Source: an uncultured Phascolarctobacterium sp. (GTDB taxonomy: Bacteria > Bacillota > Negativicutes > Acidaminococcales > Acidaminococcaceae). From it: 64,000 bases of DNA. This document shows positions 27,214 through 55,052 of the stretch, in pieces (the stretch's first letter is position 1; every line of letters begins with the position of its first letter). Location of the stretch: the NCBI GenBank assembly GCA_905200645.1, contig CAJKLD010000002.1:24917-88916 (forward strand), written 5' to 3'. A program made the position numbers and the translations under genes. The notes under the pieces are model-generated. The model saw only the letters and a program-made list of their open reading frames with translations. It did not search any database and was not told the DNA's origin.

Positions 27214-27657
27214 TTACGCTTTATTGACTGTTAACAGCAAAATATTTTTTTCATCCCTGCGCTCGTAAGCGGCAGCATCTGTAAATTTGCGCAGCATTAC
27301 CAGCCCCCAGCCTCCGGCGCGCCGTTCGTCCAAAGCCGCTTCAGCGTCAGGCTGCACGTCAGCGTTCAGCATATTAAAAGGTATACCGGCATCCTCCAAG
27401 TACAGCGTTACCGCATTGTTTGCTTCAATAAAATCAAGCTGAAGATATTTTGCACCGGCAAATCCGTCGTAAGCGTAATTAATAATATTTGCCACCGCTT
27501 CTTCCGCCGCCAGCTGCAAACGCATAGCTAAAGGCAAGGGCAACATTTTTTCGCTCTCCTCTCTAATCCACGCCAGCACCAGCGGCAGCTCCTGACCGGT
27601 AGCAGCAAAACGCTTACCGCTTTTTTTTATTATTTCAGCCGTTTGCATAGCCATCAC
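27214..27657 (-). CDS. anti-sigma regulatory factor, HATPase_c-type Ser/Thr kinase (RsbW/SpoIIAB-like)
   Basis: 147 aa. GHKL ATPase motifs including EAVANIINYA and RAGGWGL. Confidence 0.75.
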   Translation of the reverse strand: MMAMQTAEIIKKSGKRFAATGQELPLVLAWIREESEKMLPLPLAMRLQLAAEEAVANIINYAYDGFAGAKYLQLDFIEANNAVTLYLEDAGIPFNMLNADVQPDAEAALDERRAGGWGLVMLRKFTDAAAYERRDEKNILLLTVNKA

Positions 27658-27672: not shown

Positions 27673-27969
27673 TTAATCCCGAATAGTAAAAAAGGAATCG
27701 AAGCCGGACATCTCCAAAACCTCGCGCACCAAATGCTGCACATTACAAAGTACAACTTCCGTCTGCCTGCGCTGCGCGCAAGTTGCCAAAACTAAAAGTG
27801 CGCGCAAACCCGCGCTGCTGATATATTCCAGCCCCTCCAGCTCCAAAATCAGCTTGTCGCCGACAGTTTCCAGCGCCGCCAAAGCCTGCTGCTGAAATTC
27901 GCCGCAGGTTAGCGTATCAATGCGTCCTGTTACCTTTACGATATCTTTATGTACAACTTCTATTTCCAT
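27673..27969 (-). CDS. STAS-domain anti-sigma-factor antagonist (RsbV/SpoIIAA-like)
   Basis: 98 aa. The phosphorylatable Ser lies in YISSAGLRALL. Confidence 0.8.
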   Translation of the reverse strand: MEIEVVHKDIVKVTGRIDTLTCGEFQQQALAALETVGDKLILELEGLEYISSAGLRALLVLATCAQRRQTEVVLCNVQHLVREVLEMSGFDSFFTIRD

Positions 27970-28111: not shown

Positions 28112-30016
28112 ATGGATATTTTTAACCGCCAACAATATCTCGCCGCATTGCCTAAAATTCTATTGACGGCGCTTTTATATGGCTTATCCATTCTTCCCGG
28201 CAAAATGCTGCTCATGCTTGTACCAGGAGCCGAAGTGCGTTTCGCAGCCTGCATTCCCGTAATCACAGGCTTTTTGTGGGGGTCTGCCGGAGCTATCGGC
28301 AGCGCGCTGGGTAATTTTATCGGCGATTTTTACAGCGGCGACCCGCTTTTTGTCTGCTTTTGGGGCGCTGTATGTAATTTTTTTTTAGCGCTTCTGCCTT
28401 ACAAGCTCTGGTACGGCGTGCGCGCCCAAAATGCGCCGCTTTTTATTTATGATACGCAAAGCTGTATTAAATTTTTTGCGATAATTTTTCTGACGGCGCT
28501 GAATTTTGCCGCGCTGCTCACCGGTATTACCATCAGTGCGGGAATGCTGGAAAACTCTCGCAGCTTTTTCATTTTCTTTTCCAGCAATTTTAATTTTCCC
28601 CTGCTCTTCGGCCTGCCAATTTTGCTGTACCTGCGCCGCAAAATAAATTTTTCGCTGCCGGCCCTGCCCCCGGCAGCTGCTCAAAAATACTCTTGGCAAA
28701 TATATATTTTAGCTTTAGCCAGCCTTAGCAGCAGCAGCTTTTTATTATACGCTTTTAACGGCGCCAAAGCAGAAACTGCGCTTGTTTTTTTAGTGGTCAA
28801 CGCTTTACTATTGGCTTATGTGTGCACGCTTCCGGCGGCTTACAACCCGTCACTGCTCAACTTACAGCCCAAAAATTATCATTCCATCAGCGCTAAAGCA
28901 GCCTCGCTGCTGATGCTGCTGGCGGTAGCAATTATCTGCTTTACTATTTTGCTGGCATATTTCATTCAGCGCAAAGCTTTTCCCGACGAGGCCGGCTTAT
29001 CCTTATGGCAATCCTTATTCACCACGCTGCTTATCAGCAGCAACATTATTTTTTTAGCGATATTTTTACTGCTGCATCGCATGGAGCAGGCTTTAGTGCT
29101 GCCGTTGCGCCAACTCACTCACGCGGCCACTAATTTAGTTTCCAGCGGTTATTTGGAGCAGCAGCCTTGCCGGCAAGCTGCCCAAGCTTACGAAAAAAAT
29201 CAAGACGAAATCAGCGACCTCTGGACCTCTTTTAATCAAATGTCCTGCGATATCCGCAGCTATATAGACAATATGGCCGCCGCTATTGCCGAAAAAGAAA
29301 ATATAGCGGCGCAGCTTAGCGTAGCCTCGCAAATCCAGCAAAGCATTTTGCCGAACATGATACCAATTAACGAGCAGCTAAAAAATTATACTGTTACTGC
29401 GGGAATGTTTCCGGCCAAAGAAGTTGGCGGAGATATGTACGACTGCTTTTTCCTGCCGGACGGACGACTGGCGATTCTCATTGCGGATGTTTCCGGCAAG
29501 GGTATGCCTGCCGCGCTGTTTATGATGGCAGCCAAAACACTATTGAAAAGCAACGGCAGCTTAGGCGACCCGGCAAAAATTTTAAGTGCCGCTAATGACA
29601 GCTTAGCAGAAAATAATACTAATATGATGTTTGTCACCGTCTGGCTGGGTATTGTAGATTTAGCCAGCGGCAAAATGGTTTATGCCAACGCCGGACACAA
29701 TTACCCGTTATTACAAGAAGAAAACAAGCCGGGCATATGGCTGCGCCAACGTTCAGGTCCGGCCTTGGGTATCATTGCAGACCACGTTTATAAAAATTAT
29801 GAGTTTACGCTGCCTTTCAACAGCAAGCTGCTGCTGTATACGGACGGCATCACGGAAGCAGAAAATCCGCGCCAAGAATTTTATGGCGAGCAGCGGCTGG
29901 AACGGCGCTTTCAGCGCGCGCATATCCCGGAAGACATTCTTTTTTCCGTTTTGGAATTTTCCGAAGATTGTCCCCAAAGCGACGATATTACCTTTTTATG
30001 GCTTAGCCGCAAGTAA
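28112..30016 (+). CDS. membrane-bound PP2C-type serine phosphatase (RsbU/SpoIIE family) with N-terminal polytopic sensor domain
   Basis: 634 aa. About 9-10 TM helices, then a linker, then a PP2C/SpoIIE domain (ADVSGKGMPAALFMMAAK, YTDGITEAEN). Confidence 0.8.
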   Translation: MDIFNRQQYLAALPKILLTALLYGLSILPGKMLLMLVPGAEVRFAACIPVITGFLWGSAGAIGSALGNFIGDFYSGDPLFVCFWGAVCNFFLALLPYKLWYGVRAQNAPLFIYDTQSCIKFFAIIFLTALNFAALLTGITISAGMLENSRSFFIFFSSNFNFPLLFGLPILLYLRRKINFSLPALPPAAAQKYSWQIYILALASLSSSSFLLYAFNGAKAETALVFLVVNALLLAYVCTLPAAYNPSLLNLQPKNYHSISAKAASLLMLLAVAIICFTILLAYFIQRKAFPDEAGLSLWQSLFTTLLISSNIIFLAIFLLLHRMEQALVLPLRQLTHAATNLVSSGYLEQQPCRQAAQAYEKNQDEISDLWTSFNQMSCDIRSYIDNMAAAIAEKENIAAQLSVASQIQQSILPNMIPINEQLKNYTVTAGMFPAKEVGGDMYDCFFLPDGRLAILIADVSGKGMPAALFMMAAKTLLKSNGSLGDPAKILSAANDSLAENNTNMMFVTVWLGIVDLASGKMVYANAGHNYPLLQEENKPGIWLRQRSGPALGIIADHVYKNYEFTLPFNSKLLLYTDGITEAENPRQEFYGEQRLERRFQRAHIPEDILFSVLEFSEDCPQSDDITFLWLSRK

Positions 30017-30072: not shown

Positions 30073-30107
30073 AAAAACGCCCCGAAATTTCGGGGCGTTA
30101 ATTTTTT
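30073..30107. terminator. bidirectional intrinsic terminator
   Basis: Perfect hairpin AACGCCCCG-aaattt-CGGGGCGTT flanked by an A-run on one side and a T-run on the other. It separates the convergent phosphatase gene and precursor-peptide gene. Confidence 0.75.
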
Positions 30108-30426
30108 AACGCAGCCTGCCGGCGATATCCAGTGGAACAATACTATTGCCGCGGCTCTTTTGTGTTTCAAGATAATCATCAATTTTATCAACGCTTACCG
30201 ACATAGCGCTTTGAAAGCCGCTGGTTCCTATACTAATTTTTTTGGTTGCAAGATCATAGGTGGCAGTACCGCTTACATATACAGTATCTACTACTAATTT
30301 GCCATATTGATTAGTAAAAGGCTTGCCATAATAAAGAGTCCCGGCGCCGCCTGCTACATTTTCCAGTTCTTCTTCCGTCAATTGTTCAATTTTTGCCTTG
30401 TCGATAAATTCTTTGTTCTTATCCAC
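30106..30426 (-). CDS. double-glycine-leader precursor peptide C (106 aa; leader about 27 aa, core about 79 aa)
   Basis: Leader MDKNKEFIDKAKIEQLTEEELENVAGG fits the GG-leader consensus (L-12, E-8, L-7, V-4, GG). GTG start with RBS GGAAGGAG. The core has no Cys. Confidence 0.7.
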   Translation of the reverse strand: MDKNKEFIDKAKIEQLTEEELENVAGGAGTLYYGKPFTNQYGKLVVDTVYVSGTATYDLATKKISIGTSGFQSAMSVSVDKIDDYLETQKSRGNSIVPLDIAGRLR

Positions 30427-30452
30427 GTTGTTTCTCCTTCCGTTATTTAATA

Positions 30453-30623
30453 TTACTTATTTCTACAACCTTGCCATCTCGTCTTCCCAGGTTTAAAGCT
30501 ACTTCCTCCTCCGACAGCCTGTTCCAGTTCCTCATCCGTAAGCAGTGCTGCTTTTTCTTTAACAGAAAATTTATGTTCATCATTATCAGCAAGCTTTTTC
30601 TTCTCAAAAGAATTTTTCTTCAT
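30453..30623 (-). CDS. double-glycine-leader precursor peptide B (56 aa; core only about 16-17 aa)
   Basis: Leader ...KAALLTDEELEQAVGG followed by GSSFKPGKTRWQGCRNK. RBS AGGAG sits 7 nt upstream of ATG 30623. The ORF-track start 30641 is an in-frame extension. Confidence 0.55.
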   Translation of the reverse strand: MKKNSFEKKKLADNDEHKFSVKEKAALLTDEELEQAVGGGSSFKPGKTRWQGCRNK

Positions 30624-30640
30624 ACTTACTCCTTCTTTCA

Positions 30641-30877
30641 TTATTTATTTGCCAAAGATTTTACTTTCCCCACAACAGCATAATATTGCCCCGGTGCTTT
30701 TATCACTGTCTGATTAGCAGAACCTGAATTATTTACTTCCATTTGAAACCTCACAGCTGCTTCATCCATGATTAAGGCCGGCAGGGGAACTAACTCTATC
30801 AGCGGACTTTCGCCGCCGCTGGCCTGCGCCAGATCTTCATCCGTCAGCTTTTGCTTATTTATATCAGTCTTAATCAT
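30641..30877 (-). CDS. double-glycine-leader precursor peptide A (78 aa; leader 22 aa, core 56 aa)
   Basis: Leader MIKTDINKQKLTDEDLAQASGG. RBS GAGGAG sits 9 nt upstream of ATG 30877. The ORF-track start 30976 lacks an RBS and overlaps the upstream ABC gene end. Confidence 0.65.
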   Translation of the reverse strand: MIKTDINKQKLTDEDLAQASGGESPLIELVPLPALIMDEAAVRFQMEVNNSGSANQTVIKAPGQYYAVVGKVKSLANK

Positions 30878-30984
30878 AATAAATTCTCCTCGTAACAAGC
30901 AAGCTAATTTTATTCGCCAAGTCATAAGCATTTTATAATTTCTTCGACAACGCGCAGAAAAAATCCTGCTTGGCAAATTTTATT

Positions 30985-33693
30985 TTACGTCAGCTGCCTG
31001 CGCGCCAATTCGGCAAAACTGCCGTTTCTATCCATCAGCTCCGCGTAGCTGCCTTCTTCCACAATGCGCCCCTTATCCATCACCAAAATACGATTCACAT
31101 TTTTTATCGTGCTCAAGCGATGCGCAATAATCAACCGCGTGCAGCGCATTTCATTAAGACTTTTGCTGACAACAGCTTGCGTAGTATTATCCAACGCGCT
31201 GGTTGCCTCATCCAGCATCAGTACTCTAGGATTATGAACAATACTGCGCGCCAGCAAAATACGCTGCCGCTGCCCGCCGGAAATATTGCCGGAACCTTCA
31301 CTTATCATAGTGTGCATCTGCATGGGCATTTCCCGAATATCCTGCGCCAACCCGACGCGCTCCGCAGCCTTCCACGCATCATCTATGGTTAAGCCGCCCG
31401 ACGCACCGATAATATTTTCAAAAATAGTTCCGGCCATCAGCTTGCCATTTTGCAAAACTACGCCCAGTTGACTGCGTACAGAAGCTACATTCAGTTCCGC
31501 CAAATCCATATTATCGTAATACACAGCGCCGCGCAGAGGTTTTTCAAAGCCTAAAAGCAAACGCAGCAACGTAGATTTACCGCAGCCGCTGCGGCCTACA
31601 ATAGCCACCGCTTCACCGGCATTGATAAATAAATTCAAATCTCGCAGCACCTCCGGGCCATCTTTGGAATAAGCAAAGCTTAAATGCCGCAGCTCCAACT
31701 CGCCGGAAAGGCGCCCTGCCTCCAATTTTTCGTCTGACTGTTCGGGCACGGCTTCCAATAAAGGACGCAGATTTTCAATCTGCGGCTGCACGCTGAAAAA
31801 GCTGGCAGCTAACGGCACCATGTTTAACAGCGTAGCGTTAAAAGCAGAATACGCCGCCTGAAAAGCGATAAACTCCGCATAGCTCATAGCAGCCTGCGCA
31901 AAATTTGCGCCGCCCGCCTGACTTTCAATACCGTGCATAGCAATGTAATACAAAAGTAAGCTTAAAAGCAAGGGCTGCCCCATATTGATAATGGCGCTGA
32001 AATTATTTTGCCAGCGCAGCTTTAAATTCCACTTCCATTGCTCGCCAAAGCATTTGGCCCACAAATAAAAAGCCTGCTCTTCTGCGCCCTGAATGCGGAA
32101 TTTGGCTAAGCCGTTAAAAATTTGCACCACCTTAGCCGAGGTTTTATTATCTGCGTTAATCATGTGCCGCTGAAAGTTGATAACGCGCCGATAAATAAAC
32201 GCCGTGATGATAAAATATACCAGCCATAGACACAATGCGGTCAGCGTCAGCTTGAAGCTGTAATAGCACATCAAAAAAACGCTCCACAGCGAAAAAATCA
32301 CATTAAATACGCTGCTGATAAAATCGCCTGTGACAAAAGTTTTGATGGCGTTAATGCCCTGCATTCTGCCTAACAGCTCGCCTGTTTCATATTTTTTGAA
32401 GAAATCGGCGGGCATAGCCAAAAGGCGCGACCACAACGCCGCTTCCGTAGCGATATTCAAATGGTTAGAAATACGCAGCACGGCGATAGAACGTACTAAG
32501 GACAACGCCGCCGTAGTAAAGCCAACCACTAAAATAACCTGCGTAAGCGTAGTTAAGCCCTGGCGGTCGCCAATAGGAATAACATCGCTGAAAATAGATT
32601 TGCTGATAATAGGCGTAACCAGCGGCGTGAGCCCTGCAAAAAAGCTGGCCAGCACAATGGTTATATAATCGTTACGCCAGCATTGGCGCAGCATAAATTG
32701 CAGTAAATCCTTAATTCTCAACGCGCGCTGGGGAAATCCCGCATAGCAGGCGTAAGCTGCGTTGCTCAATTCAGCCGCCAGCTCTGCGTTCAGCTCGGTT
32801 TTGCTGCCGTCGGCTGCATATAAATAATATTTTTCGGGAGTTTCCGGCAGAGCCGCCAGCCATTCCTTATCGCGCTGCACCAACAACACGCCGCTGTCGC
32901 GGCTAAACCATTCTTCCTCTAAAACCACACGGCGCAGCCGCACGCCGCCTTTGACCAGCAAACGTTTAAGAATTGCAAAATCACTTTGCCGCTGCTTCAA
33001 TTCCTTAGGCAGCGTCATACCCTCTATTTCCATTTGAAAATGCCCGCCTATGCGTCTGGCCAGCTGTGTTAAACCGTCGCTGTCGCCATAAATCGGCGCA
33101 AAAGCGTCTTCCTCGCCTGTCAAAATATTGATGGACGCATCTATCAGCTTTTGCTTTTTCTGACGGCGCACTTCCAAACGCTGCGAAAAATATTTGCGCA
33201 GGGAATTAAACTGTCCGCTTAAAAACATTGCCAAAATATTTTCATGCTCCAAAAAGGTAAGCCATAACTGCTCGTCTTTCACATGCAATAAAAAATCTGT
33301 TTTGTTCCAGCCGCCAACATAGTCGTCATTACGCACAGCAAAAAAACGCAGCCACGGCAGCACCAGCAATGATTTAAACCAATCGCGCATACCATCGCGC
33401 AAACCGGCAGCGTCGCCGATACAATTTTCCGCAGCATCAGCAGCGTTGTAAATTGCCAGCTCTACTGGTTTTTTGGCATATAAAAAGATTTCTAATTTTT
33501 GAAACTCATCATAAAGGCCAAACACATACTGCCCTTTGCCGCGTTCCAGCAAAAACATGCGTTCTCTGCCGTCGCCGGTCGCGGCATAAACGTCTACGGC
33601 GCCTCTCAAAACTACAGCCACGGCGCCCTCTTGTTCCAACTTTAGGCATTGCCCGGAAGCGAGCGTCATTTGTTTTGCTTTACTTAAACTCAT
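30985..33693 (-). CDS. ABC exporter (TMD+NBD) with N-terminal cyclic-nucleotide-binding-like domain, NHLM/bacteriocin-system type, no peptidase domain
   Basis: 902 aa. A roughly 300-aa N-terminal extension precedes six TM helices. Walker A GRSGCGKST, ABC signature LSGGQRQR, Walker B LMLDEATSALD. The gene overlaps the upstream ABC gene by 4 nt. Confidence 0.8.
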   Translation of the reverse strand: MSLSKAKQMTLASGQCLKLEQEGAVAVVLRGAVDVYAATGDGRERMFLLERGKGQYVFGLYDEFQKLEIFLYAKKPVELAIYNAADAAENCIGDAAGLRDGMRDWFKSLLVLPWLRFFAVRNDDYVGGWNKTDFLLHVKDEQLWLTFLEHENILAMFLSGQFNSLRKYFSQRLEVRRQKKQKLIDASINILTGEEDAFAPIYGDSDGLTQLARRIGGHFQMEIEGMTLPKELKQRQSDFAILKRLLVKGGVRLRRVVLEEEWFSRDSGVLLVQRDKEWLAALPETPEKYYLYAADGSKTELNAELAAELSNAAYACYAGFPQRALRIKDLLQFMLRQCWRNDYITIVLASFFAGLTPLVTPIISKSIFSDVIPIGDRQGLTTLTQVILVVGFTTAALSLVRSIAVLRISNHLNIATEAALWSRLLAMPADFFKKYETGELLGRMQGINAIKTFVTGDFISSVFNVIFSLWSVFLMCYYSFKLTLTALCLWLVYFIITAFIYRRVINFQRHMINADNKTSAKVVQIFNGLAKFRIQGAEEQAFYLWAKCFGEQWKWNLKLRWQNNFSAIINMGQPLLLSLLLYYIAMHGIESQAGGANFAQAAMSYAEFIAFQAAYSAFNATLLNMVPLAASFFSVQPQIENLRPLLEAVPEQSDEKLEAGRLSGELELRHLSFAYSKDGPEVLRDLNLFINAGEAVAIVGRSGCGKSTLLRLLLGFEKPLRGAVYYDNMDLAELNVASVRSQLGVVLQNGKLMAGTIFENIIGASGGLTIDDAWKAAERVGLAQDIREMPMQMHTMISEGSGNISGGQRQRILLARSIVHNPRVLMLDEATSALDNTTQAVVSKSLNEMRCTRLIIAHRLSTIKNVNRILVMDKGRIVEEGSYAELMDRNGSFAELARRQLT

Positions 33694-35894
33694 AACGCCG
33701 CACCTCCTTGAGTATCTTCATTATCCGCTATCAAACCTGCGTAAACACCGCCTTGGGCCAACAGTTCTTCATGCCGGCCGCGTTCCACTGCCCGGCCATG
33801 GTCAATAACTATAATTTCGTCACAGTCGCGTATAGTGCTCAAACGGTGAGCTACCACAATACAGGTACAGCCTCTGCGTCTGATATTTTCCATTACTTCC
33901 AGTTCTGTCAAGGGGTCTAAAGCGCTGGTAGCTTCGTCCAGCACCAAAATAGAGGGATTGACTGCCAGCGCGCGGGCAATTTCCAAGCGCTGACGCTGAC
34001 CGCCGCTGAAATTAAATCCGCCCTCGCCCACATGATGCTCGTAACCGCCGTCTAAGCGCAAAATATCATCATGGATGCACGCATCCTTAGCGGCGCGGAT
34101 AACGTCACTGCGGCGGATGGAGCTATCAAACAAGGTCAAATTTTCTTCAATAGTTCCCGACAGCAAAAAAATATCCTGGTCAACAGCGGCAAGAGAATTG
34201 CATAACACCTCGTGAGGAATCTTCTCTCTGGCGTAACCGTCAAACAGCACTTGTCCGCTCCACTCTTTATAAATGCCCGTTATCAGCTTAGCGATAGTTG
34301 ATTTGCCGCTGCCGCTGCCGCCAACCAGCGCCACCCAGGCTCCCGGCTCTAAATGCAAATCAAAATTATTTACTAAGGGCTTCGCCAAAACGCTATAACC
34401 AAAAGCGATATTGCGCAGCTCTACCTCACCCCATAGTCTGTCTCTGCCGATGGAAGCAGGCTGCTGCTCGGGATAATTCAAGCTGTCGCGATTATAACGC
34501 ATAACGTCATCCAAACGCTTCATCTGCATTTCTGTATTTTGCAGCGTATCCGCCAAGCCTAAAAGCTTGTTAAAGGGCTCCTGAAAATTTCCCATCAAGC
34601 CCTGAAAAGCTACAAAAATACCGGCTGTCATAGCGCCGTCCATAATGGAAAAACCGCCGACAGTCATAATCAACGCAGAATTGATACCGCCTAAAAGCAA
34701 CGGCAGCATTTGTACCGACATATTATATAAAGCCATTTTTTGGCTGCCGTCCAGCACGCGGCTGCGATAGCCCACCCATTTCGCAAAAAATTCGTCCTCT
34801 GTGCCGTTGGCTTTTAAGGTTTCCATCATCTGCAGGCCATTCATAGCTACGCCATATTCTTTGGCAGCATCCTGCTGTACCTTCATGGCCATTTCCAAAA
34901 GATGCGGTCTTACAATAAAAAACACCAAAACACTGATTAAACTGAAGCCTACGCCAATAATGGTCAGCACTACATTATAATGTAATAATAACACCAAAAA
35001 GAACAGCGCTATAAAAAAATCCAATACAGCCGTAGCCGCCGAGCCGGTAAGCACCTCCGCTACGGTTTCAACATAGCTTACGCGGGAAGCAACCTCGCTG
35101 CTAAAACGCTGTTGAAAAAAATCCATGGGCAGTCTAAGCAAATGCCAAAAAAATCGCGAGGACTCAGCAATAGTTAAGCGTGCCTGCCATTTAGTCAAGC
35201 ACCAGCAGCGCAGCCACACTAACAGCGCTTCAATGACAAAAACCACCAGCATCAGCAGCGTTACGTCTGTCATCCATTCCTTATGCTTACCCGACAAAAT
35301 ATCATCTAAAAACACCTGCGTAAATACAGGCTGCGCCAGCTGCGGTACAATCAAAAACAGGCAGATAAGCATCACAAAAAGAGCAGGCAGCTCTTCGCCT
35401 TTAAGACGTTTTATAACTTCCTTGTAAATGCTGTATTTTTCTCCGCTGGGCTGAAAATTTTCGGTCGGAGTTATTTCTAAGGCTATGCCGGTATAGCTGC
35501 CATAAAAGCTTGCAAAAGATATACGGCGGTGTCCCACTGCCGGGTCATTAATGTAAACCGTATCTCCCTTGATACCTTCTAAAACCACAAAATGATTAAA
35601 CTCCCAGTGTATCAGCATGGGATAAGCTGCGTCGCGCAAGGCTTCCGCCGGATAACGATAGCCGTTGGCATTAAATCCCCAGCGGCGCGCAGCCTTAACA
35701 ATATTCGCCGCCGAAACGCCGTCGCGGTTGACACCGCACTCCTGCCGCAGCTTTTCCAGCGGCAGCCACAAACCGTAATAGGCAAAGATCATGCACAAAG
35801 AGGCAGCGCCGCATTCCACTGCTTCCATTTGCAGTACGGTCGGCGTTTTTACACGCTTTCCTTCTGCTTGCTTAAAAATATTATCCATTTTCAA
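33690..35894 (-). CDS. peptidase-C39-domain ABC exporter (bacteriocin/microcin processing-secretion ATPase)
   Basis: 734 aa. N-terminal C39 domain with catalytic Cys in QMEAVECGAASLCMIFAYYG and His in HFVVL. The TMD and NBD follow (GGSGSGKST, SGGQRQR, LVLDEATSALD). Confidence 0.9.
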   Translation of the reverse strand: MKMDNIFKQAEGKRVKTPTVLQMEAVECGAASLCMIFAYYGLWLPLEKLRQECGVNRDGVSAANIVKAARRWGFNANGYRYPAEALRDAAYPMLIHWEFNHFVVLEGIKGDTVYINDPAVGHRRISFASFYGSYTGIALEITPTENFQPSGEKYSIYKEVIKRLKGEELPALFVMLICLFLIVPQLAQPVFTQVFLDDILSGKHKEWMTDVTLLMLVVFVIEALLVWLRCWCLTKWQARLTIAESSRFFWHLLRLPMDFFQQRFSSEVASRVSYVETVAEVLTGSAATAVLDFFIALFFLVLLLHYNVVLTIIGVGFSLISVLVFFIVRPHLLEMAMKVQQDAAKEYGVAMNGLQMMETLKANGTEDEFFAKWVGYRSRVLDGSQKMALYNMSVQMLPLLLGGINSALIMTVGGFSIMDGAMTAGIFVAFQGLMGNFQEPFNKLLGLADTLQNTEMQMKRLDDVMRYNRDSLNYPEQQPASIGRDRLWGEVELRNIAFGYSVLAKPLVNNFDLHLEPGAWVALVGGSGSGKSTIAKLITGIYKEWSGQVLFDGYAREKIPHEVLCNSLAAVDQDIFLLSGTIEENLTLFDSSIRRSDVIRAAKDACIHDDILRLDGGYEHHVGEGGFNFSGGQRQRLEIARALAVNPSILVLDEATSALDPLTELEVMENIRRRGCTCIVVAHRLSTIRDCDEIIVIDHGRAVERGRHEELLAQGGVYAGLIADNEDTQGGAAL

Positions 35895-35898
35895 CGCC

Positions 35899-36858
35899 TC
35901 ATCTGCTTCTCAGCCAATGACTAAGCTTGTAAAAAACCTTTTCAATCGGCGGCTTACGGTCCACCACTACAAAACCGCTGCATACGCTGCCGGAAGTTAT
36001 TTTTTTATGCTCCCCCAAACGAGAGGTCCACAAAAAACCGGATTTAGATTTAGGGTCTTTTACTAACTCAAAGGTTACCTCGCTGACAGCTCCATCATTT
36101 TTTGCCAGCAGCCACTGCACCAGCTGCTGATTGCCCAGCTTGTTAATCATGCCTTCGGCGGAAGCCGGATAGCGTGATACTGAGCGCACTACAGCCACCA
36201 TGCTGCCGTTTTCGCCGGCATTGCTGCCATTGGGCGAAACCTGCATAGTCATACCGGGAATAATGCGCTTGCCATCCATAACCGGAACATACAGCACGCC
36301 CTGCAAATCATCGCGACCCTCGTCACGGCGCAAGGTACAAATCGTTCCGCCAGCCGATAAAATTGCTTCGGGCATCACCAACACCTCGTCTACAATACCG
36401 TCGTAGCCGCTGACAATAATTTCGCTGATATTTTGCTGATAACGCTTGGCATCATAATTAGCGGCGCTGTTGACAGCCTCGCGCTCATTTTCTGCCAAAA
36501 ACATACCGGAGCGGGCAATTTTACTTTCTACATCCTGCGAAGGCTGCTCCAACGTAGCGATAACGTCGCCCTTGCGCACCTGCGTGCCGGGGGCAACCAA
36601 CACGCGCTCCACCTTGCCGCCGACCACGGACGAAACGTTAGCTACGCCGCCTGCGTCCAGCAATATTCCCGTTCCTTCCACTTTATCTATAATCGCGCCG
36701 AAAATTGACCACATTAACAGGGAAAAAATCATGATGCCCAAAGCAGCCAAGCCTATCCAGCTGATAGGCGTAGTTACCTGCAGCAGCTTATCGATATTTT
36801 CCGGACTGCGCTGCTTATCCATAGCCGCCTTACTGAAAATATCTTTATTTTGCGCCAT
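35899..36858 (-). CDS. HlyD-family secretion adaptor (short, biotin-lipoyl-like type; NHLM-system-like)
   Basis: 319 aa. N-terminal TM anchor and a lipoyl-like motif VVGGKVERVLVAPGTQVRKGDVIATL. The long coiled coil of classic HlyD is absent. Confidence 0.7.
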   Translation of the reverse strand: MAQNKDIFSKAAMDKQRSPENIDKLLQVTTPISWIGLAALGIMIFSLLMWSIFGAIIDKVEGTGILLDAGGVANVSSVVGGKVERVLVAPGTQVRKGDVIATLEQPSQDVESKIARSGMFLAENEREAVNSAANYDAKRYQQNISEIIVSGYDGIVDEVLVMPEAILSAGGTICTLRRDEGRDDLQGVLYVPVMDGKRIIPGMTMQVSPNGSNAGENGSMVAVVRSVSRYPASAEGMINKLGNQQLVQWLLAKNDGAVSEVTFELVKDPKSKSGFLWTSRLGEHKKITSGSVCSGFVVVDRKPPIEKVFYKLSHWLRSR

Positions 36859-38041
36859 CAGAAATCCCCCCTTCTATGCTGATTTCGGCCTTCATGCCGC
36901 TTGCCAGGCCTTCTCTGCCGGATACTACTACTATTTCGCCAAGCTGTATACCGCTTTGCACCTCGGTATAACTGCCGTCGGACGCGCCAATAATTACCTT
37001 GCGCTCCGCCAATTTGCCGTCAGAAGTCCACACAAAAACACTGGAACGCTTAGCATCCACTGCCTTGGCAGGCACCGCCAGCACTCTGCGTTCGGCAGTT
37101 TCCTGAAAACGAACCTGCTGATAACGTTTTGGCTCCAAAAGACCGGAGCTGTTGTCAACCTCCCAGCTTACGCTGCGCAATGAAGCCGCTTGTCCCACAG
37201 GCGGTTCTACCTTGACAATATGCGCGTTAAAGGTTTGCGCGTAACCGCGGTTACTGCCGCCATAGCTGCCGCTGTAAATTTTTTCCAAATCTCCCTGTTC
37301 AACAGAAAGCTCCCATTCCTTACCGATAGGCAGCAAGCTCTGAAAATCATCCTCGCTGATGGTTTCTGTAAAACGCAGCTTGGTAAAATTACCAATCAAC
37401 GCCACGGAAGTCCCGGCCTGTAAAAAAGCTCCTTCTTTTTTATAAAGCATCAGCACTTCACCGTCAAGCGGCGCCGTTACTGTTAATCGGTCACGCAAGA
37501 GCTCGTATTGCTGCTTTTCCAGGCGCAGAGTTTCCAGCTCTGCCATAGCAGATTTATGCTGGGTTTCTATATCCTCATACTGCTCCAAAGAAACTGCACC
37601 TAAGCCGATAAGCCGCTGATAGCGGGACAGTGAATTGGCATAACGCGCCGCCACCGTCTGCGCCTTGGCAATATTTACGTCCGCCTGCACAATTTTCATA
37701 TCAATATCTTCATTAACCACATGGCAGATGGGCTGTCCCTTGACAACCCTGGCGTTGGGCTGCACGTAGATTTTCTCTAGGGTTCCTTCTAAGCGGGAAA
37801 CTGCATCCGTCATATTTTCGGCCTCCATGCGCACATCCTTGCGCTCAAAGCCGCCGCGCAAAGCGCGTATTTCCGCCTTGGCGCCCACTAATCTGATGAT
37901 GCGGTTGGACAATCTCGCCGCAATATTTCCTTCATCTGTATAATTTAAAAACGTTCCGTAGCCAACTAACAGCAGCATCATGGCAATAACGACAGCTACA
38001 GCGATAAAAAATATCTTTTTCACCAAAAGTACCTCCAGCAA
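36845..38041 (-). CDS. HlyD-family membrane-fusion/secretion adaptor
   Basis: 398 aa. N-terminal TM anchor, lipoyl-like hairpin (VVKGQPICHV), coiled-coil segment, and C-terminal beta-barrel domain. The gene overlaps the downstream adaptor gene by 14 nt. Confidence 0.75.
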   Translation of the reverse strand: MLEVLLVKKIFFIAVAVVIAMMLLLVGYGTFLNYTDEGNIAARLSNRIIRLVGAKAEIRALRGGFERKDVRMEAENMTDAVSRLEGTLEKIYVQPNARVVKGQPICHVVNEDIDMKIVQADVNIAKAQTVAARYANSLSRYQRLIGLGAVSLEQYEDIETQHKSAMAELETLRLEKQQYELLRDRLTVTAPLDGEVLMLYKKEGAFLQAGTSVALIGNFTKLRFTETISEDDFQSLLPIGKEWELSVEQGDLEKIYSGSYGGSNRGYAQTFNAHIVKVEPPVGQAASLRSVSWEVDNSSGLLEPKRYQQVRFQETAERRVLAVPAKAVDAKRSSVFVWTSDGKLAERKVIIGASDGSYTEVQSGIQLGEIVVVSGREGLASGMKAEISIEGGISDGAK

Positions 38042-38212: not shown

Positions 38213-38260
38213 GTTACAAAAAAAGCGGACGCTCACAAGCGTCCGCCAAAAAAGATTTTT
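38213..38260 (-). terminator. intrinsic terminator after Mrp-like operon
   Basis: Hairpin GCGGACGC-tcacaa-GCGTCCGC with flanking A-run and T-run. Confidence 0.65.
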
Positions 38261-40008
38261 TACATTGTAGCAATAAAATATGCAATACTGCTTACCAAAA
38301 CCGTCAGCGTAATCATCATCGGGTCGGCAATAGAGGTACGATAGTTCTCCGGATTGTAATGGTTGCGTTTACGAAAGGGTTTCGCATCCAAGAAATCCAT
38401 GGGATTAGACGTTAAATCCATAAACTTTTCATACAGAACCTGCCATGCGTTGCCCAAGCCGTTGCACAGTGCGCACAGCAATGCGCTCAGTCTGCCAATC
38501 AGCAGAGCAAAGGGTCCGCGATAGAACCAATCCGTATCCAGGCTGATGGCAGTGTGCGGTTCCATTTTATTGAGGTACATCATAAACGGAATCATAGCCA
38601 TACCCAGCATTTGTACAGGCTGCAATAAATGCGGCGCGGTAAACGGCTGGTAGGGAGTCATCTCAAAGGGCAGATGACTGTACAGCAAATCCGGACATAC
38701 GCCGTAAAGGAAGCACAGGAAACCGCTGATGCTCATAGCAATTTTCATATTGATAGGCAGCGGCTTGATAATCTCTGCGCCTTTATCGTCCTTGCGCAGA
38801 AAAATAAAGTAACCCATTTTTAAAGGAATTGATAAAAACGTACCGATAGCAGCCAGCTCCAGTAAAGTGAATACCATGGGCAGACCGGCAGCCGCAGCAG
38901 CGTTTACCGTAATATTTTTACTGATAAAGCCGTTGAACAGCGGAATACCGGCGATAGAAAACGCAGCCGAGAAGAAGCATACAGCAACCAGCGGCAGCTT
39001 TTTCGCCATGCCTCCAACCTTGTTTATATGCTTAATGCCCGTAGCATAAATTACTGCGCCGGCGCACATAAAGAGCAAGGATTTAAAAAGAATATCGCAG
39101 AAGGCATGAGCGGTAGCACCGTTCATAGACATAGCAGTGCCAATACCTGCGCCGGCAACCATAAAGCCGGTCTGGGAAATAATATGGTGCGCCAAAAGCT
39201 TACGCATATCGTTTTCCATAATCGCATAGCATGCGCCATACAAAGCCATAAGCACGCCGCCCCAAATTAACAGCTCGGTACCTGCAAAAACTCTGATTAA
39301 GGCGTAGACAGCAACCTTAGTAGTCAAACAGCTCATAAACACGCCGCCAGTAAGAGTGGAGTTAGAATAAGCGTCTACCAGCCAAGCGTTGACCGGAGGC
39401 ATAGCCACGTTGACGCACATACCCAACATGACAAACCAATAGGCCCAATCGTGAGGTCTGTTGGTAAAGCTGTGCATCATTAAATCACCGTTGCCTGTAT
39501 ACCAGGTTACAAAAATACCTGCCAGCAGAACGCCTCCGCCCAACATATGCACCAGCATATAGCGGAAGCCTGCACGGCGCGCTTCGTGAGTAGGATTACA
39601 CCATACCAAAAACAAAGAAGTAATAGCCAAAGATTCCCAAAAGAAAATGAAGGTCAGCCAATCCTTAGCTAAGCAGACACAGATTGCTCCGCCTGCATAA
39701 GCCATGGAACAAAGCGCTTCCATGCGATTGGGATTGTGAGCAGCATAAATACCGCTTACTAAAGCCAATACGGAAAAGATAAAGGCAAAAATCCACGCCA
39801 ATTTATCAACATACATAATATGCAGCTGTAAATCATGAACGAAAGGCAGAGTAACCTCCGTTCCCAAGGGCAGATTATATGCCGCAGCGACGGCAGCCAG
39901 CGGTCCTAAAGCCAGGACAAATTTTCTGATTACCTTAGGAGCAAGCATTGCTAAAATGCCTACTGCCCACAAAATCAGACCGGGATGAAGCATTAACTCA
40001 TTCATCAA
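38260..40008 (-). CDS. NuoL/MrpA-MrpD-like proton-conducting antiporter subunit (582 aa)
   Basis: 14-plus TM helices. Complex-I antiporter-like (proton_antipo_M) fold. Last gene of the Mrp-like cluster. Confidence 0.7.
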   Translation of the reverse strand: MMNELMLHPGLILWAVGILAMLAPKVIRKFVLALGPLAAVAAAYNLPLGTEVTLPFVHDLQLHIMYVDKLAWIFAFIFSVLALVSGIYAAHNPNRMEALCSMAYAGGAICVCLAKDWLTFIFFWESLAITSLFLVWCNPTHEARRAGFRYMLVHMLGGGVLLAGIFVTWYTGNGDLMMHSFTNRPHDWAYWFVMLGMCVNVAMPPVNAWLVDAYSNSTLTGGVFMSCLTTKVAVYALIRVFAGTELLIWGGVLMALYGACYAIMENDMRKLLAHHIISQTGFMVAGAGIGTAMSMNGATAHAFCDILFKSLLFMCAGAVIYATGIKHINKVGGMAKKLPLVAVCFFSAAFSIAGIPLFNGFISKNITVNAAAAAGLPMVFTLLELAAIGTFLSIPLKMGYFIFLRKDDKGAEIIKPLPINMKIAMSISGFLCFLYGVCPDLLYSHLPFEMTPYQPFTAPHLLQPVQMLGMAMIPFMMYLNKMEPHTAISLDTDWFYRGPFALLIGRLSALLCALCNGLGNAWQVLYEKFMDLTSNPMDFLDAKPFRKRNHYNPENYRTSIADPMMITLTVLVSSIAYFIATM

Positions 40009-40283
40009 TCATCACCTCTGCCATCTTCATCAAAATCATCATCGTAATAATCCTTATCACGCTGCAATAGCGGCGCCATAATCATTTTAGAAACGATAAT
40101 CAAAACCCAAGCACCCACAAAGCCAAAGAAAATATCGTAGCCAAAGGGCAGTGGCCACCAAGACGCAGCGTGCATATGTACGCCGGCGATTTCGGCAGCG
40201 GCCGCCAGCACCAAAACTACAGCTACAAGCATATAGACTGTTTTCTTAGTCATTAAAGCCACCCCCCGTGCCAGCCTGCGCAA
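40005..40283 (-). CDS. small membrane protein with acidic C-terminal tail (92 aa)
   Basis: Two predicted TM helices and the tail DKDYYDDDFDEDGRGDD. The gene overlaps its neighbours by 4 nt and about 30 nt inside the Mrp-like operon. Confidence 0.45.
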   Translation of the reverse strand: MRRLARGVALMTKKTVYMLVAVVLVLAAAAEIAGVHMHAASWWPLPFGYDIFFGFVGAWVLIIVSKMIMAPLLQRDKDYYDDDFDEDGRGDD

Positions 40284-41758
40284 ACTGCGTTAGAGGCCAT
40301 AGTCGCCAATTTGTAAAAATGCGGATACACATCTGGAAAACAACCAAGCACAATGGCTATTAAGGTTGTAATACAGATAGGAATCAGCATAGCGTAGCTG
40401 ATTTCACCGTAGGAACGGAATTTCTCCTGCGGGTCCTTTACGAAAAAGGCCATCTGCGAAACAGGAATTAAATATGCCGCAGCAAGCAGACCGCTGGCTA
40501 CCCAAAGCAGCACATACAAGGGCTTGCCGGCCTGCAACGCGCCTAAGCACAAATTCCATTTGCTGATAAAGCCTACTAAGAAAGGTACGCCTGCAATACC
40601 CAAGGACGCAATAGTGAAGCAGGCCATAGTTACCGGCAGCTTTTTACCAATACCATAAAGCTCGCTGATATTGTTGCGGTGAGTACGGGCGATTATCAAA
40701 CCCGCACACATAAAGAGGGTAATTTTCATTACAGCATGCGCCACTAAATGCAGATAGGCACCTTTAATACTGATAGGAGAAATCAGCGCTGCGCCTAAAA
40801 CAATGTAGGACAGCTGACCGATAGTAGAAAATGCCAGTCTGCGTTTTAAATGATCCTGGCGCAGAGCTATCAAGGAAGATACCAAAATACTGATGGCGGC
40901 AGCCCAAGCCAAAACGTCGGTTACGCCAATTTCTGCCAACAGCTTAGGTCCAAAAACGAAGCCGATAATACGCAGCACGGCGAAAACGCCGGTTTTAACA
41001 ACCGCAACCGCATGCAACAGTGCAGAAACCGGAGTCGGCGCAATCATTGCTGCGGGCAGCCAGCCATGCAGCGGCATGACAGCCGCCTTTACGGAACCTG
41101 CCAAAATCATCAGCACGAATACGGCCTGCAAAACCCATTTTGGAGCCATGCCCAAGGTTAAGAAACCGCCGGCAGTAAAGTCCATGGTACCGCTGATGCA
41201 GTAAACGGCAATCAAGCCTGCCAGGAAAAACTGACCGGAAATCAAGGTATAAATTAAATATTTACGACTTGCCATCAAGGCTTCCTGGTTACGTTTATGC
41301 AGTACCAAGGGATAGCTTGCCAAAGTCAGCAGTTCATAAAAGATAAAGAAGGTCAACAGATTAGAGGCCATGGCAATGCCCATAACGGCGCTCATGCACA
41401 CGGCGAATGCTGCAAAATAACCTGTCTGCTCGCGCTCCTGGTTGCAGCGCATATAGCCTATGGAATAAAAGTTCATAGGTACCCACAGCATGGAAGCCAG
41501 CACAGCAAAAATCATACCTGCCGGATCTGTGCGCAGTGTTAAGCCTACGGTATCAGTAATTTGGCACAAGGTCCATTGATATACATTACCGTCCAACACT
41601 GCAGGCAGCATGGAAAGGATAATTCCAAATTTCAAAACGGAAGCAATAACGCTCCATGTCTCACGCAAATTAGGCCAACGTCTGCTGAAAGCAATCAGCA
41701 CAGCAGCAATAAAGGAAACTCCTACTGCCAGAAATGGTCTGCAATCTATAATCGTCAT
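40253..41758 (-). CDS. MrpD/NuoN-like antiporter subunit (501 aa)
   Basis: Polytopic, proton-conducting membrane transporter family. Confidence 0.7.
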   Translation of the reverse strand: MTIIDCRPFLAVGVSFIAAVLIAFSRRWPNLRETWSVIASVLKFGIILSMLPAVLDGNVYQWTLCQITDTVGLTLRTDPAGMIFAVLASMLWVPMNFYSIGYMRCNQEREQTGYFAAFAVCMSAVMGIAMASNLLTFFIFYELLTLASYPLVLHKRNQEALMASRKYLIYTLISGQFFLAGLIAVYCISGTMDFTAGGFLTLGMAPKWVLQAVFVLMILAGSVKAAVMPLHGWLPAAMIAPTPVSALLHAVAVVKTGVFAVLRIIGFVFGPKLLAEIGVTDVLAWAAAISILVSSLIALRQDHLKRRLAFSTIGQLSYIVLGAALISPISIKGAYLHLVAHAVMKITLFMCAGLIIARTHRNNISELYGIGKKLPVTMACFTIASLGIAGVPFLVGFISKWNLCLGALQAGKPLYVLLWVASGLLAAAYLIPVSQMAFFVKDPQEKFRSYGEISYAMLIPICITTLIAIVLGCFPDVYPHFYKLATMASNAVCAGWHGGWL

Positions 41759-43248
41759 CTCAGAAACACCTCCGGCAAGCCTAATTTAATGATATCCATA
41801 ACAATGTCCACACTGTAGAAGCCTAATACCAAAATGCCAATACCCATTACAAAAATCGGCAGCGCCATAGCGAATGGCAGTCCCAGCTTACCCTTGTGAG
41901 GGTGAACCTCCGTAAGCGAAGCTTCACGCTGCACAAACATCTGCTCAATGATACGGAAGAAGTAAATTGCATTTAAAAGAGAGCTGATTACCAGCACTGC
42001 AATGTAAAAATATTGCTGCCCGGTGTAAGCGCCCAGCATCAAATACCATTTACTGAAGAAACCGGCAGTGGGAGGCAGTCCAATCATAGAAAGCGCCGCC
42101 AGCGTTACAGTAATGGTGCTGATGGTCATTTTCTTATTCATGCCGCCCAAGCGATACAGATTAACTTCGCCGAAGCGATGCTCAATACCGCCGATAACCA
42201 GGAACAGGCTGCACTTCATAAAGGCGTGGTTGATAATGTGCAGCACAGCGCCGATAAAGCCGTACATATTTCCCATAGCCATACCGATGGCAATATAACC
42301 AATCTGCGCTACGGAAGAGTAAGCCAGCATACGACGGAAGTCATATTGAGCCATAGCCATGATGGAGCCAATCAAAATACCGGCTACGCCAAGAATGCCC
42401 AAAACGTTCAGCGCACTGTGCATTACGGGGCTGTCAACCTTAAAGATATAGTACATAAAACGAATCATGGCATAAGCCGGAGCCTTACTCATGCAGCCCG
42501 CAATAAAAGCAGCAGCGCCGGGATGCGCAAAGGTGTAAGCGTCCGGCTGCCAGCCATGCAGCGGGAACAGCGCCATTTTAATACCAAAGCCAATGATAAA
42601 GCAGGCAACGGCAATAGCAAAGAGCGGCGAATTAAGATGAGGCACAACTCTCTGCGCCAAATCTGCCATATTCAAGGTGCCGGTCAAAGCGTATAAATAA
42701 CCAACGCCCAATAAATACAAGGAAGCGCCGATAGTGCCGATAAGCAGATAACGGAAAGCCGCCAGCATAGATTTTTTGCCGCCCAAAGCAATCAAGCCAT
42801 AACCGGATAAGGACATGATTTCCAGATATACATACAAGTTAAATACGTCGCCGGTGATAATCATGCCGCACAAACCGACAGTCAAAAGACCAAACAAGGT
42901 ATAATAGCCGCCTACATGCAGCCAATCTTCCTCTTTAACGAAAGGTCTACTGTATAAAGCTACCATCATAGAAATAAAGGTTACTAAAACAGCCAAAACG
43001 CTGTTCAGAGGGTCTAAAGCAAATTCAATGCCGATAGGAGGCTGCCAGCCTCCCATCCAATAATGCCAGGTTTGGCCGCCGCTGGTGATAACCCTGTGCA
43101 GCACCGTGCAGGCGCTCAAGAATGCACCCACGATAGAAGCCATAACTATCCAAGCGCCAAGATCTCTCTTAATACGACTGAACAGCATACACAAAAGCGA
43201 AGCCGTCAAGGGCAAAAGTACAATGAAAATTGGAGCATGCTGTGTCAT
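41755..43248 (-). CDS. MrpD/NuoM-like antiporter subunit (497 aa)
   Basis: Polytopic, proton-conducting membrane transporter family. 4-nt overlaps with both neighbours. Confidence 0.7.
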   Translation of the reverse strand: MTQHAPIFIVLLPLTASLLCMLFSRIKRDLGAWIVMASIVGAFLSACTVLHRVITSGGQTWHYWMGGWQPPIGIEFALDPLNSVLAVLVTFISMMVALYSRPFVKEEDWLHVGGYYTLFGLLTVGLCGMIITGDVFNLYVYLEIMSLSGYGLIALGGKKSMLAAFRYLLIGTIGASLYLLGVGYLYALTGTLNMADLAQRVVPHLNSPLFAIAVACFIIGFGIKMALFPLHGWQPDAYTFAHPGAAAFIAGCMSKAPAYAMIRFMYYIFKVDSPVMHSALNVLGILGVAGILIGSIMAMAQYDFRRMLAYSSVAQIGYIAIGMAMGNMYGFIGAVLHIINHAFMKCSLFLVIGGIEHRFGEVNLYRLGGMNKKMTISTITVTLAALSMIGLPPTAGFFSKWYLMLGAYTGQQYFYIAVLVISSLLNAIYFFRIIEQMFVQREASLTEVHPHKGKLGLPFAMALPIFVMGIGILVLGFYSVDIVMDIIKLGLPEVFLR

Positions 43249-43628
43249 TTACTTGCCCTCCTCAATACCTCTACTTCTTCTACGGAGCCATAAATTTCTT
43301 TAATGCGCATTAACAGCGCAATAGCTACGCCGGTGGTACCAAGGCTGACTACAATAGCGGTCAGCATCAGACCATGAGGAAGCGGATTGATATAAGCGTT
43401 AGGATCGGTAGTAATACCGTTTTGAATAGGTATCATTGCTCCGTCCTTTTGAGCAAAGCACAGATAAAAATAAATAACTGCCACCTGCATAACGTTCATA
43501 GCCATCAGCTTTTTCATATAGTTTTTGCTTAAAACCATGCCGTAAACGCCTAAGAAAAAGAGGATCATCACTAAGGAATAGATGCCTTTAGTCTTTAAAA
43601 ACTCATTGAGCACTTCCATCATCTTCAC
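43245..43628 (-). CDS. MrpC/NuoK-like subunit (127 aa)
   Basis: Three TM helices. The size and position match MrpC/MbhG. Confidence 0.65.
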   Translation of the reverse strand: MKMMEVLNEFLKTKGIYSLVMILFFLGVYGMVLSKNYMKKLMAMNVMQVAVIYFYLCFAQKDGAMIPIQNGITTDPNAYINPLPHGLMLTAIVVSLGTTGVAIALLMRIKEIYGSVEEVEVLRRASK

Positions 43629-44623: not shown

Positions 44624-44624
44624 C

Positions 44625-55039: not shown

Positions 55040-55052
55040 AGGAGCACCAGCC

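Follow-up and report, generated by a model that had tools for sequence, protein, structure and literature searches.

A probable NHLM-type double-glycine peptide export locus for small unmodified proteins in an uncultured Phascolarctobacterium

Introduction

What leaves the cell through an operon that encodes two ATP-binding cassette (ABC) exporters, two periplasmic adaptors and three small proteins with double-glycine (GG) leaders, and by what route? The question is raised by seven minus-strand genes in a 64-kb stretch of DNA from an uncultured Phascolarctobacterium sp., which is referred to below, at its full length, as the window. Phascolarctobacterium is common in the human gut and turns succinate into propionate; to our knowledge hardly anything has been learned of what this bacterium secretes. 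Leaving the function of the cargo aside, we read the locus as an NHLP/NHLM-type system for GG-peptide cleavage and export in a diderm Phascolarctobacterium and give this reading a probability of about 0.72. From its gene content the locus appears to secrete three unmodified small proteins, called peptides A, B and C here. Related loci used for comparison carry the labels L007 to L023, and the coordinates of all features are collected in Table 1.

Results

Transport proteins of the export cassette

The proteins of the operon were searched against NCBIfam and the core transport proteins scored above the curated cut-offs of peptide-export models. The exporter ABC1 matched TIGR03796 with 985.6 bits (cut-off 853.3), its partner ABC2 matched TIGR03797 with 760.0 bits over residues 212-901 (cut-off 709.4) and the HlyD membrane-fusion protein matched TIGR03794 with 246.0 bits (cut-off 156.2). 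These three models define the NHLP/NHLM transport cassette of Haft, Basu and Mitchell 2010 (PMC2887384), and the assignment to an NHLM export cassette made in an earlier note on this DNA was borne out by the scores. All four transport genes were found to be under purifying selection (ratio of nonsynonymous to synonymous substitution, dN/dS, 0.10-0.17), and the Walker A, signature, Walker B and H-loop motifs were canonical in the nucleotide-binding domains of both ABC1 and ABC2.

ABC1 is a peptidase-containing ABC transporter (PCAT), as had been proposed earlier from its C39 domain. Peptidase_C39 was matched with an E value of 5e-35, the domain aligned with LahT150 (PDB 6mpz) at E 4e-48, and Gln22, Cys28, His101 and Asp117 lined up with catalytic positions in PCAT1 and ComA, giving a peptidase that looks catalytically active. 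ABC2 had no Pfam match to C39. A degenerate C39-like domain on ABC2 was also considered and was dropped after a BLASTP comparison between ABC1's C39 domain and residues ~190-350 of ABC2 returned no similarity.

Residues ~1-110 of ABC2 have, in a model of moderate confidence, the layout of a beta-roll like that of CRP and of cyclic nucleotide monophosphate (cNMP)-binding domains, followed by a helical linker and the TIGR03797 body. Because the TIGR03797 match begins at residue 212, the extension is ~211 residues long, shorter than the ~300 residues estimated in the earlier note, whose description of it as cNMP-binding-like holds at the level of the fold. In the AlphaFold model residues 1-100 were predicted as eight strands followed by a helix, with a predicted local distance difference test (pLDDT) score of 64-87. 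When this N-terminus was compared with the PDB using Foldseek, the top 50 matches were without exception effector domains of the CRP/FNR type (CprK, CRP, CooA, Vfr, CLP or HcpR; E 1e-5 to 3e-4), typically over 109-130 aligned columns. Inspected by eye, with no reliable alignment behind the comparison, the region GQYVFGLYDEFQKLEIFLYA lacks the R-[ST]-A of the phosphate-binding cassette (G-E…R-[ST]-A). The N-terminus of ABC2 would accordingly be described as cNMP-binding-like, a description supported at fold level only.

Both adaptors had been called HlyD proteins in the earlier note. This stood for the second, the TIGR03794 protein; the first is of RND_mfp/YknX type and not NHLM-type, with a TIGR01730 score of 135.6 bits (cut-off 94.9), Pfam matches to HlyD_D23 and HlyD_3 and a YknX_C match on the identical gene in metagenome contigs. 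This first adaptor is anchored in the membrane at its N-terminus and contains a coiled-coil hairpin stretch of ~80 residues, and its gene is kept upstream of the NHLM HlyD gene in all relatives. The HlyD protein was matched in two stretches of the 421-position TIGR03794 model, the best being residues 141-312 on positions 249-419, and ~100 central positions of the model, which would correspond to the hairpin, appear to be missing. Judged by these matches, the NHLM HlyD appears to lack most of its helical hairpin and the extra adaptor to bring a normal coiled coil.

Leaders and cargo peptides

All three small open reading frames (ORFs) carry one leader pattern, with L at -12, T at -11, acidic residues at -10 to -8, L at -7, A or V at -4 and a terminal GG. 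A regular-expression scan for the pattern in all six frames of the window gave three matches only, which were A, B and C; the three GG-leader ORFs listed earlier, with L at -12, E at -8/-9 and L at -7, were therefore confirmed and no further ones were seen in the window. None of the three matched TIGR03793 (NHLP) or TIGR03798 (Nif11-type), in agreement with the earlier view that these are short GG leaders and not NHLP or Nif11 leaders. The predicted cores are hydrophilic and not Gly-rich, with grand average of hydropathy values of 0.09, -1.67 and -0.18 for A, B and C.

The core of C was predicted to fold into a compact beta5-alpha-beta domain (pLDDT 84-96) for which no convincing structural match was found. 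About 11 distant relatives were recovered, so that C represents a small conserved family; leader and core are kept across ~36-74% identity, the gene is single-copy and the family is under purifying selection (dN/dS 0.14-0.24). C matched the CTB family bacteriocin model NF038167 with 19.3 bits, below the cut-off of 32, over the leader and the first 22 core residues, and 8 of the 11 family members matched this model weakly (best E 5e-5). Weak matches of C to PFK, Muc_B2 and L-PSP were dismissed as noise.

The gene for A was also called on external contigs and has homologues in L010 and L011. The window and L010 versions are nucleotide-identical as far as …EVNNS and then switch in frame to alternative tails of 26-27 residues, giving two alleles. 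The N-terminus of the A core scored 22.6 bits against DUF2589 (PF11655), with a gathering threshold of 23, over ~35 of 154 model positions, and the L011 homologue scored 32.3 bits. In the literature searched nothing was found on the function of DUF2589 or of CTB bacteriocins. The predicted core of B is GSSFKPGKTRWQGCRNK, with an isoelectric point of 11. The B gene was called on external contigs and was seen in near-identical strains only; in L010 and L011 a CAG-to-TAA nonsense codon just ahead of the GG makes it a pseudogene. The C gene is absent from these two close relatives. The earlier statement that the cores have no recognisable homologs thus survives for B, found in near-identical strains only, and gives way for C with its ~11 relatives and for A with its DUF2589-like segment.

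The cargo differs elsewhere. L007 has C together with three different small GG-leader genes, and L009, L012 and L016 have C only. The four cargo genes of L007 have near-identical leaders and unrelated cores, and the C homologue at L007:8207-8563 (P0002, P0004) has a 12-residue tandem duplication at the N-terminus of its leader (MEKNKEFFGNAKMDKDKEFIGNAK…).

Gene boundaries and transcription unit

The operon spans ~38224-30076 on the minus strand, with seven genes and a terminator at each end. All seven ORFs were called again by independent gene calling on ~18 metagenome contigs with the same locus, and the set of seven minus-strand ORFs within 30106-38041 given in the earlier note was upheld. 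Start codons were set by the position of the ribosome-binding site (RBS) and by the external gene calls, which placed them at GTG 38023 for the first adaptor, ATG 36858 for HlyD, ATG 35888 for ABC1, ATG 33693 for ABC2, ATG 30877 for A, ATG 30623 for B and GTG 30426 for C. The adaptor had previously been started at TTG 38041; the start now used lies 8 nt downstream of a GGAGG RBS. For B the 56-aa form from 30623 was preferred over a 62-aa form from 30641. Overlaps of 4-14 nt had been described for the operon and were present at two junctions, adaptor/HlyD (14 nt, 36845-36858) and ABC1/ABC2 (4 nt, 33690-33693), while the remaining junctions are gaps of ~10 nt (HlyD-ABC1), ~107 nt (ABC2-A), 17 nt (A-B) and 26 nt (B-C).

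The terminator at the 3' end serves both the peptide operon and the phosphatase gene that converges on it, and the C gene ends 7 nt before it. At the other end, ~180 nt of AT-rich sequence with TATAAT boxes lies downstream of the terminator and is a putative promoter region. Sigma-70 promoter-like matches were counted 11 times against 11.9 expected in shuffled sequence, and because such sites were no commoner than in shuffled sequence no promoter is claimed. A search with Rfam gave no riboswitch or other RNA within or near the operon. Taken together, the ribosome-binding sites and terminators define one transcription unit. Directly upstream of it is a multi-subunit Mrp-type Na+/H+ antiporter operon (38260-45885), which is not there in L012 and L016.

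Table 1. Positions of the export operon, its terminators and the adjoining regulatory genes in the window.
Feature	Coordinates	Strand	Remarks
RND_mfp/YknX-type periplasmic adaptor	36845..38023	minus	392 aa; ORF reaches TTG 38041
Short NHLM-type HlyD membrane-fusion protein	35899..36858	minus	319 aa; TIGR03794
ABC1, PCAT (C39 protease, transmembrane domain, nucleotide-binding domain)	33690..35888	minus	732 aa
ABC2, peptidase-less ABC exporter	30985..33693	minus	902 aa; TIGR03797; 4-nt overlap with ABC1
Peptide A precursor	30641..30877	minus	78 aa; leader M1-G22 (…KLTDEDLAQASGG); predicted core 56 aa; RBS AGGAG
Peptide B precursor	30453..30623	minus	56 aa; leader M1-G39 (…LLTDEELEQAVGG); predicted core 17 aa; RBS GAAGGAG
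Peptide C precursor	30106..30426	minus	106 aa; leader M1-G27 (…QLTEEELENVAGG); predicted core 79 aa
Bidirectional intrinsic terminator	30076..30099	both	10-bp stem, 7 GC pairs; T-runs on either strand
Terminator of upstream Mrp antiporter operon	38224..38247	minus	strong hairpin and T-run; upstream operon boundary
Membrane PP2C (SpoIIE-type) phosphatase	28112..30016	plus, convergent with operon	PF07228 157.7 bits
STAS anti-sigma-factor antagonist	27673..27969	minus	TIGR00377 66.1 bits (cut-off 53.45); PF01740 62.4 bits
RsbW/SpoIIAB-like anti-sigma serine kinase (HATPase_c_2)	27214..27657	minus	PF13581 65.3 bits (cut-off 27.4); RsbW matches weak

Partner-switching neighbours and the related loci

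Beyond the 3' terminator lie genes for a membrane phosphatase, a STAS antagonist and a serine kinase, a trio of the partner-switching kind. In the phosphatase a polytopic membrane domain of ~300 aa at the N-terminus is joined to a PP2C domain by a HAMP-like linker. The protein has weak matches to SiaA (NF038263) and HAMP, and its sensor domain is apparently almost wholly membrane-embedded. The motif PGAEVRFAAxIPVxxGxxWGxxGAxGxAxGN is highly conserved in the membrane domain. The trio adjoins the transport genes in all ten relatives with readable flanks (L007, L009, L010, L011, L012, L016 and L020-L023), and in the shorter fragments L008, L013, L017, L018 and L019 the phosphatase is found directly 3' of a cargo gene. 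It is not next to cargo in L014 and L015, in which an IS200 element follows the C homologue, or in L023, whose order is permuted. The IS200/Y1 transposase genes, directly after the C-family gene, are at L014:1089-1541 and L015:698-1150.

The order of the four transport genes, both adaptors included, is kept in L007, L010-L012, L016 and L020-L022, with matching parts in the truncated loci, and the outer flanks vary among loci (Mrp/LarA, MATE/cupin, LepA, Peptidase_C15). When metagenomes were scanned in reverse with the phosphatase membrane domain five loci were recovered, and exporter genes were present in 4/4 informative ones. The order in L023 is phosphatase, STAS, kinase, NHLP precursor, radical-SAM genes, adaptor and HlyD, a permutation that argues for a functional neighbourhood and not frozen synteny. 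The PP2C/STAS/kinase module most likely regulates the export system. Neither the window nor the related loci have a sigma-factor or other output gene adjoining the module.

Comparison with the closest relatives showed that the locus is mosaic. The window and L010 are 99.5-100% identical over most of the transport genes, drop abruptly to 68-80% inside the cargo region and then run at 83-92% through phosphatase, STAS, kinase and LarA, and L010 and L011 share one cargo/phosphatase haplotype. The drop marks the cargo region as a recombination boundary in these three genomes, as in many bacteriocin loci. One breakpoint lies at ~30713, with the window and L010 ~100% identical to the middle of gene A and 68-88% identical beyond it; a second lies at ~27700, where the window and L011 are again 99-100% identical from the kinase gene onward.

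The same neighbourhood could be read as a signalling circuit, which we consider unlikely. Exported C, perhaps also A, would be an autocrine or quorum signal sensed by the membrane domain of the phosphatase; the phosphatase would dephosphorylate the STAS protein, STAS would capture the kinase/anti-sigma factor, and a target (a sigma factor, the exporter or, in relatives, the proteusin cluster) would be switched on. Wherever the downstream sequence can be read the trio does adjoin cargo genes, apart from L014/L015 and from L023, in the last of which the phosphatase adjoins no cargo gene at all, and the phosphatase-domain search recovered only exporter-carrying loci among the informative ones. 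When L010 and L011 are set against the window, the cargo and SpoIIE/STAS genes are seen to be inherited together, as a haplotype separate from that of the transporter genes, but with three mosaic genomes chance would be expected to link adjoining segments in this way. Purifying selection on single-copy C with no immunity gene, and a cationic B core of the size of GG-leader pheromones, would suit a signal, yet L010 and L011 keep phosphatase, STAS and kinase after losing C and inactivating B. The embedded sensor domain leaves little room for a periplasmic protein-binding domain, the adjacent output gene that such a circuit would call for is missing, and no link between GG-peptide exporters and partner switching was found in the literature searched. 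Less likely still is the more specific proposal that the C mini-protein, the PP2C phosphatase, STAS and the kinase form an undescribed cell-cell or autocrine circuit in which an NHLM-exported GG-leader protein is read by partner switching. If true, the export of peptides or proteusins in gut Negativicutes would be under the control of this circuit, with partner switching in place of a two-component system.

Proteusin clusters in relatives

In L016, L018, L020, L021 and L023 a proteusin cluster adjoins the same exporter and regulators. It comprises an NHLP precursor with an Asn/Val/Ala/Gly-rich core (TIGR03793 64.1 bits in L016, cut-off 50.9), two B12-radical-SAM C-methyltransferases (TIGR03975 560 and 504 bits, cut-off 282) and a PoyD-type epimerase (TIGR04517 401 bits, cut-off 325). 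The cluster lies at L016:14228-20114, L018:4267-10157, L021:2241-8060 and L023:2324-8143, the last from a human-gut metagenome, and the core of the 181-aa precursor (NVNGVANVNYAVNVNAGAAVNVGAGVNF…) has a polytheonamide-like look. A conserved 291-aa protein is encoded on the opposite strand between the kinase gene and the NHLP precursor (L016:13256-14131, also in L020, L021 and L023); it has no family match apart from a faint GNAT match in L018 and is absent from the window. A tblastn search with the L016 NHLP and radical-SAM genes found nothing in the window and, going by gene content, the window locus is a proteusin-less derivative.

Such a derivative might be a remnant, with exporter and regulators left over from a proteusin cluster, A and B decaying or incidental and little function beyond C. 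We rate this as improbable, on a par with the undescribed circuit. The five loci above have the precursor, methyltransferases and epimerase nearby and the window has none, and the cargo does vary, with B pseudogenised and C deleted in close relatives; the four transport genes, however, are intact, with canonical catalytic motifs and the low dN/dS given above, the operon keeps good ribosome-binding sites and terminators, and at least four proteusin-less lineages (the window, L007, L009 and L012) keep the whole block together with C.

A drug or lipid efflux pump with small ORFs arising by chance is effectively refuted: although the first adaptor is of RND/MacA/YknX type and the ABC bodies also resemble MsbA/ABCB1-type exporters, the top-scoring families above cut-off are peptide-export equivalogs and not the unrelated drug-efflux systems that the earlier note had named as the outcome that would speak against it, a C39 GG-protease that looks catalytically intact is fused to ABC1, and the small ORFs have ribosome-binding sites, a common leader motif and conserved homologues under purifying selection.

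Host and wider window

A strict-pattern contig scan of species-representative genomes returned two loci, both in metagenome-assembled genomes of uncultured Phascolarctobacterium. The window encodes two paralogous 404-aa SLH-domain OmpM-like proteins (56340-57554 and 60961-62175), the second with a weak porin match. SLH-domain OmpM-type proteins are typical of Negativicute outer membranes, and the diderm Negativicute host assumed in the earlier note agrees with the Phascolarctobacterium identity and with these SLH-porin genes.

Other genes of the window have no obvious link to the locus. A 232-aa biotin-lipoyl/HlyD-like barrel-sandwich protein followed by a ThiF-family protein (54341-55766) is apparently unrelated to the operon, and a DUF815 AAA ATPase (18563-19879), a sigma-54-dependent activator (50398-52281), a small radical-SAM protein (53094-53993) and a tRNA (59304-59375) were also annotated.

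Discussion

Export through this NHLP/NHLM-type system can be pictured from known PCATs and type-I-like systems together with the family memberships found here. Precursors A, B and C would be made with acidic leaders of 22-39 residues, and the C39 domain of ABC1 (Cys28/His101/Asp117) would bind the leaders and cut after GG. ABC1 and ABC2, probably as a heterodimer, would pump the cores out, the short-hairpin NHLM HlyD and the RND-type adaptor would take the cargo through the periplasm, and a channel in the outer membrane, with its gene at another site, would form the last stage. Gating of export by a small ligand is probably the task of the CRP-like domain of ABC2. The products would be unmodified, with C as a conserved 8.5-kDa folded mini-protein forming the core cargo of the locus family and A and B as variable accessory cargo.

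Several observations weigh against this reading. No OEP/TolC-type gene was present among the 27 window ORFs scanned against Pfam. The GG-leader model TIGR01847 gave C 14.6 bits against a cut-off of 15.7 and did not match A or B. Support for the ABC2 N-terminus came from a model with an overall pLDDT of 46.8 built on a 3-sequence alignment; a word-indexed homologue search with residues 1-339 gave just 2 proteins, which accounts for the shallow alignment and for the poor model beyond residue 110. Residues 1-204 had no Pfam match even at E<=10, PF00027 included, and a profile search of PDB sequences with residues 1-339 was negative. With B a pseudogene and C absent in L010 and L011, the locus can do without some of its cargo genes. 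No unassigned ORF with an RBS was found in the operon or in the 17-107-nt gaps between ABC2, A, B and C, and there is no immunity gene; the ORF and RBS check, the family scans and tblastn here came to the same result as the earlier note, which had reported neither a modification nor an immunity gene in the operon or its flanks. Finally, the related loci all seem to come from one narrow clade, so part of the conserved synteny could reflect shared ancestry.

The cargo most likely acts outside the cell, in competition or interaction among related bacteria. A bacteriocin-like role would fit the variable repertoire and the toxin-exporting ancestry of the machinery and would fit poorly with the missing immunity gene and with a conserved, hydrophilic, folded C; a microcin-like antimicrobial role likewise fits the data poorly. 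A transporter class known from modified toxins of the RiPP class (peptides synthesized ribosomally and modified post-translationally) is kept under selection here for unmodified GG-leader cargo, and this cargo includes a conserved 8.5-kDa domain with a confident predicted fold and no convincing structural relative. The locus offers a handle on the role of the peptidase-less ABC subunit and its CRP-like domain, on how a PCAT system crosses the Negativicute outer membrane with two different adaptors and on whether partner-switching modules regulate peptide export. The polytheonamide-type proteusin clusters in metagenomes, at least one of them from a human-gut sample, are of natural-product interest.

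Comparison with known systems

The closest comparison is the NHLP/NHLM cassette itself. The locus has the same gene order in one operon, with a C39-ABC protein, a peptidase-less ABC protein and an HlyD-like protein, and in more distant relatives it stands beside a true NHLP precursor and radical-SAM maturases. It differs in that the window has no NHLP/Nif11 precursor or modification enzyme and has short class-II-type GG leaders instead, in the extra RND_mfp-type adaptor translationally coupled upstream, in an HlyD ~100 residues shorter than the model and in the 211-aa CRP-like-fold extension of ABC2. The polytheonamide-type proteusin RiPP clusters are represented by genes in the five relatives named above and by none in the window.

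With LahT, PCAT1 and ComA (PDB 6mpz, 4ry2, 8hf4) ABC1 shares aligned catalytic Gln, Cys, His and Asp residues, and the leaders, judged by eye, conform to the pattern that those enzymes recognise, L(-12), E(-8), L(-7), GG. Those transporters are homodimers, mostly of monoderm bacteria, whereas here a second ABC protein and two adaptors are found in a diderm host. HetC of Nostoc PCC 7120 is a PCAT with an N-terminal cNMP-like domain that binds ppGpp (guanosine tetraphosphate) and is needed for function (PMC10986499). It resembles the present system in having a cNMP/CRP-like domain fused N-terminally to a GG-peptide-type ABC exporter in a diderm bacterium, but the HetC domain is recognised by Pfam and sits on the peptidase-bearing transporter, whereas here it is a predicted fold on the peptidase-less partner.

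Class II microcins and bacteriocins such as colicin V, exported by CvaAB-TolC, likewise combine unmodified GG-leader precursors with a C39-ABC protein and a membrane-fusion protein in a diderm envelope, and several cargo genes lie 3' of the transporter in a strain-variable repertoire. The present locus departs from them in lacking an immunity gene, in its hydrophilic cores that are neither Gly-rich nor membrane-active-looking and in C, a conserved folded domain under purifying selection. The regulatory neighbours correspond to RsbU/V/W, SiaABC of Pseudomonas and BtrUVW of Bordetella in combining a PP2C phosphatase, a STAS antagonist and a HATPase_c_2 kinase, and the phosphatase resembles SiaA in its membrane and HAMP-like N-terminus; they stand apart from those modules in having no cognate sigma factor or output gene adjoining and in a linkage to a GG-peptide exporter that the literature searched does not describe. 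Set beside these systems the machinery is of a known kind. New or unusual are the use of a cassette devoid of proteusin genes for unmodified cargo with short leaders, the pairing of an additional adaptor with a short HlyD, a cryptic CRP-like domain carried by the ABC protein that has no peptidase, and a partner-switching neighbour that is conserved, along with the family of C mini-proteins.

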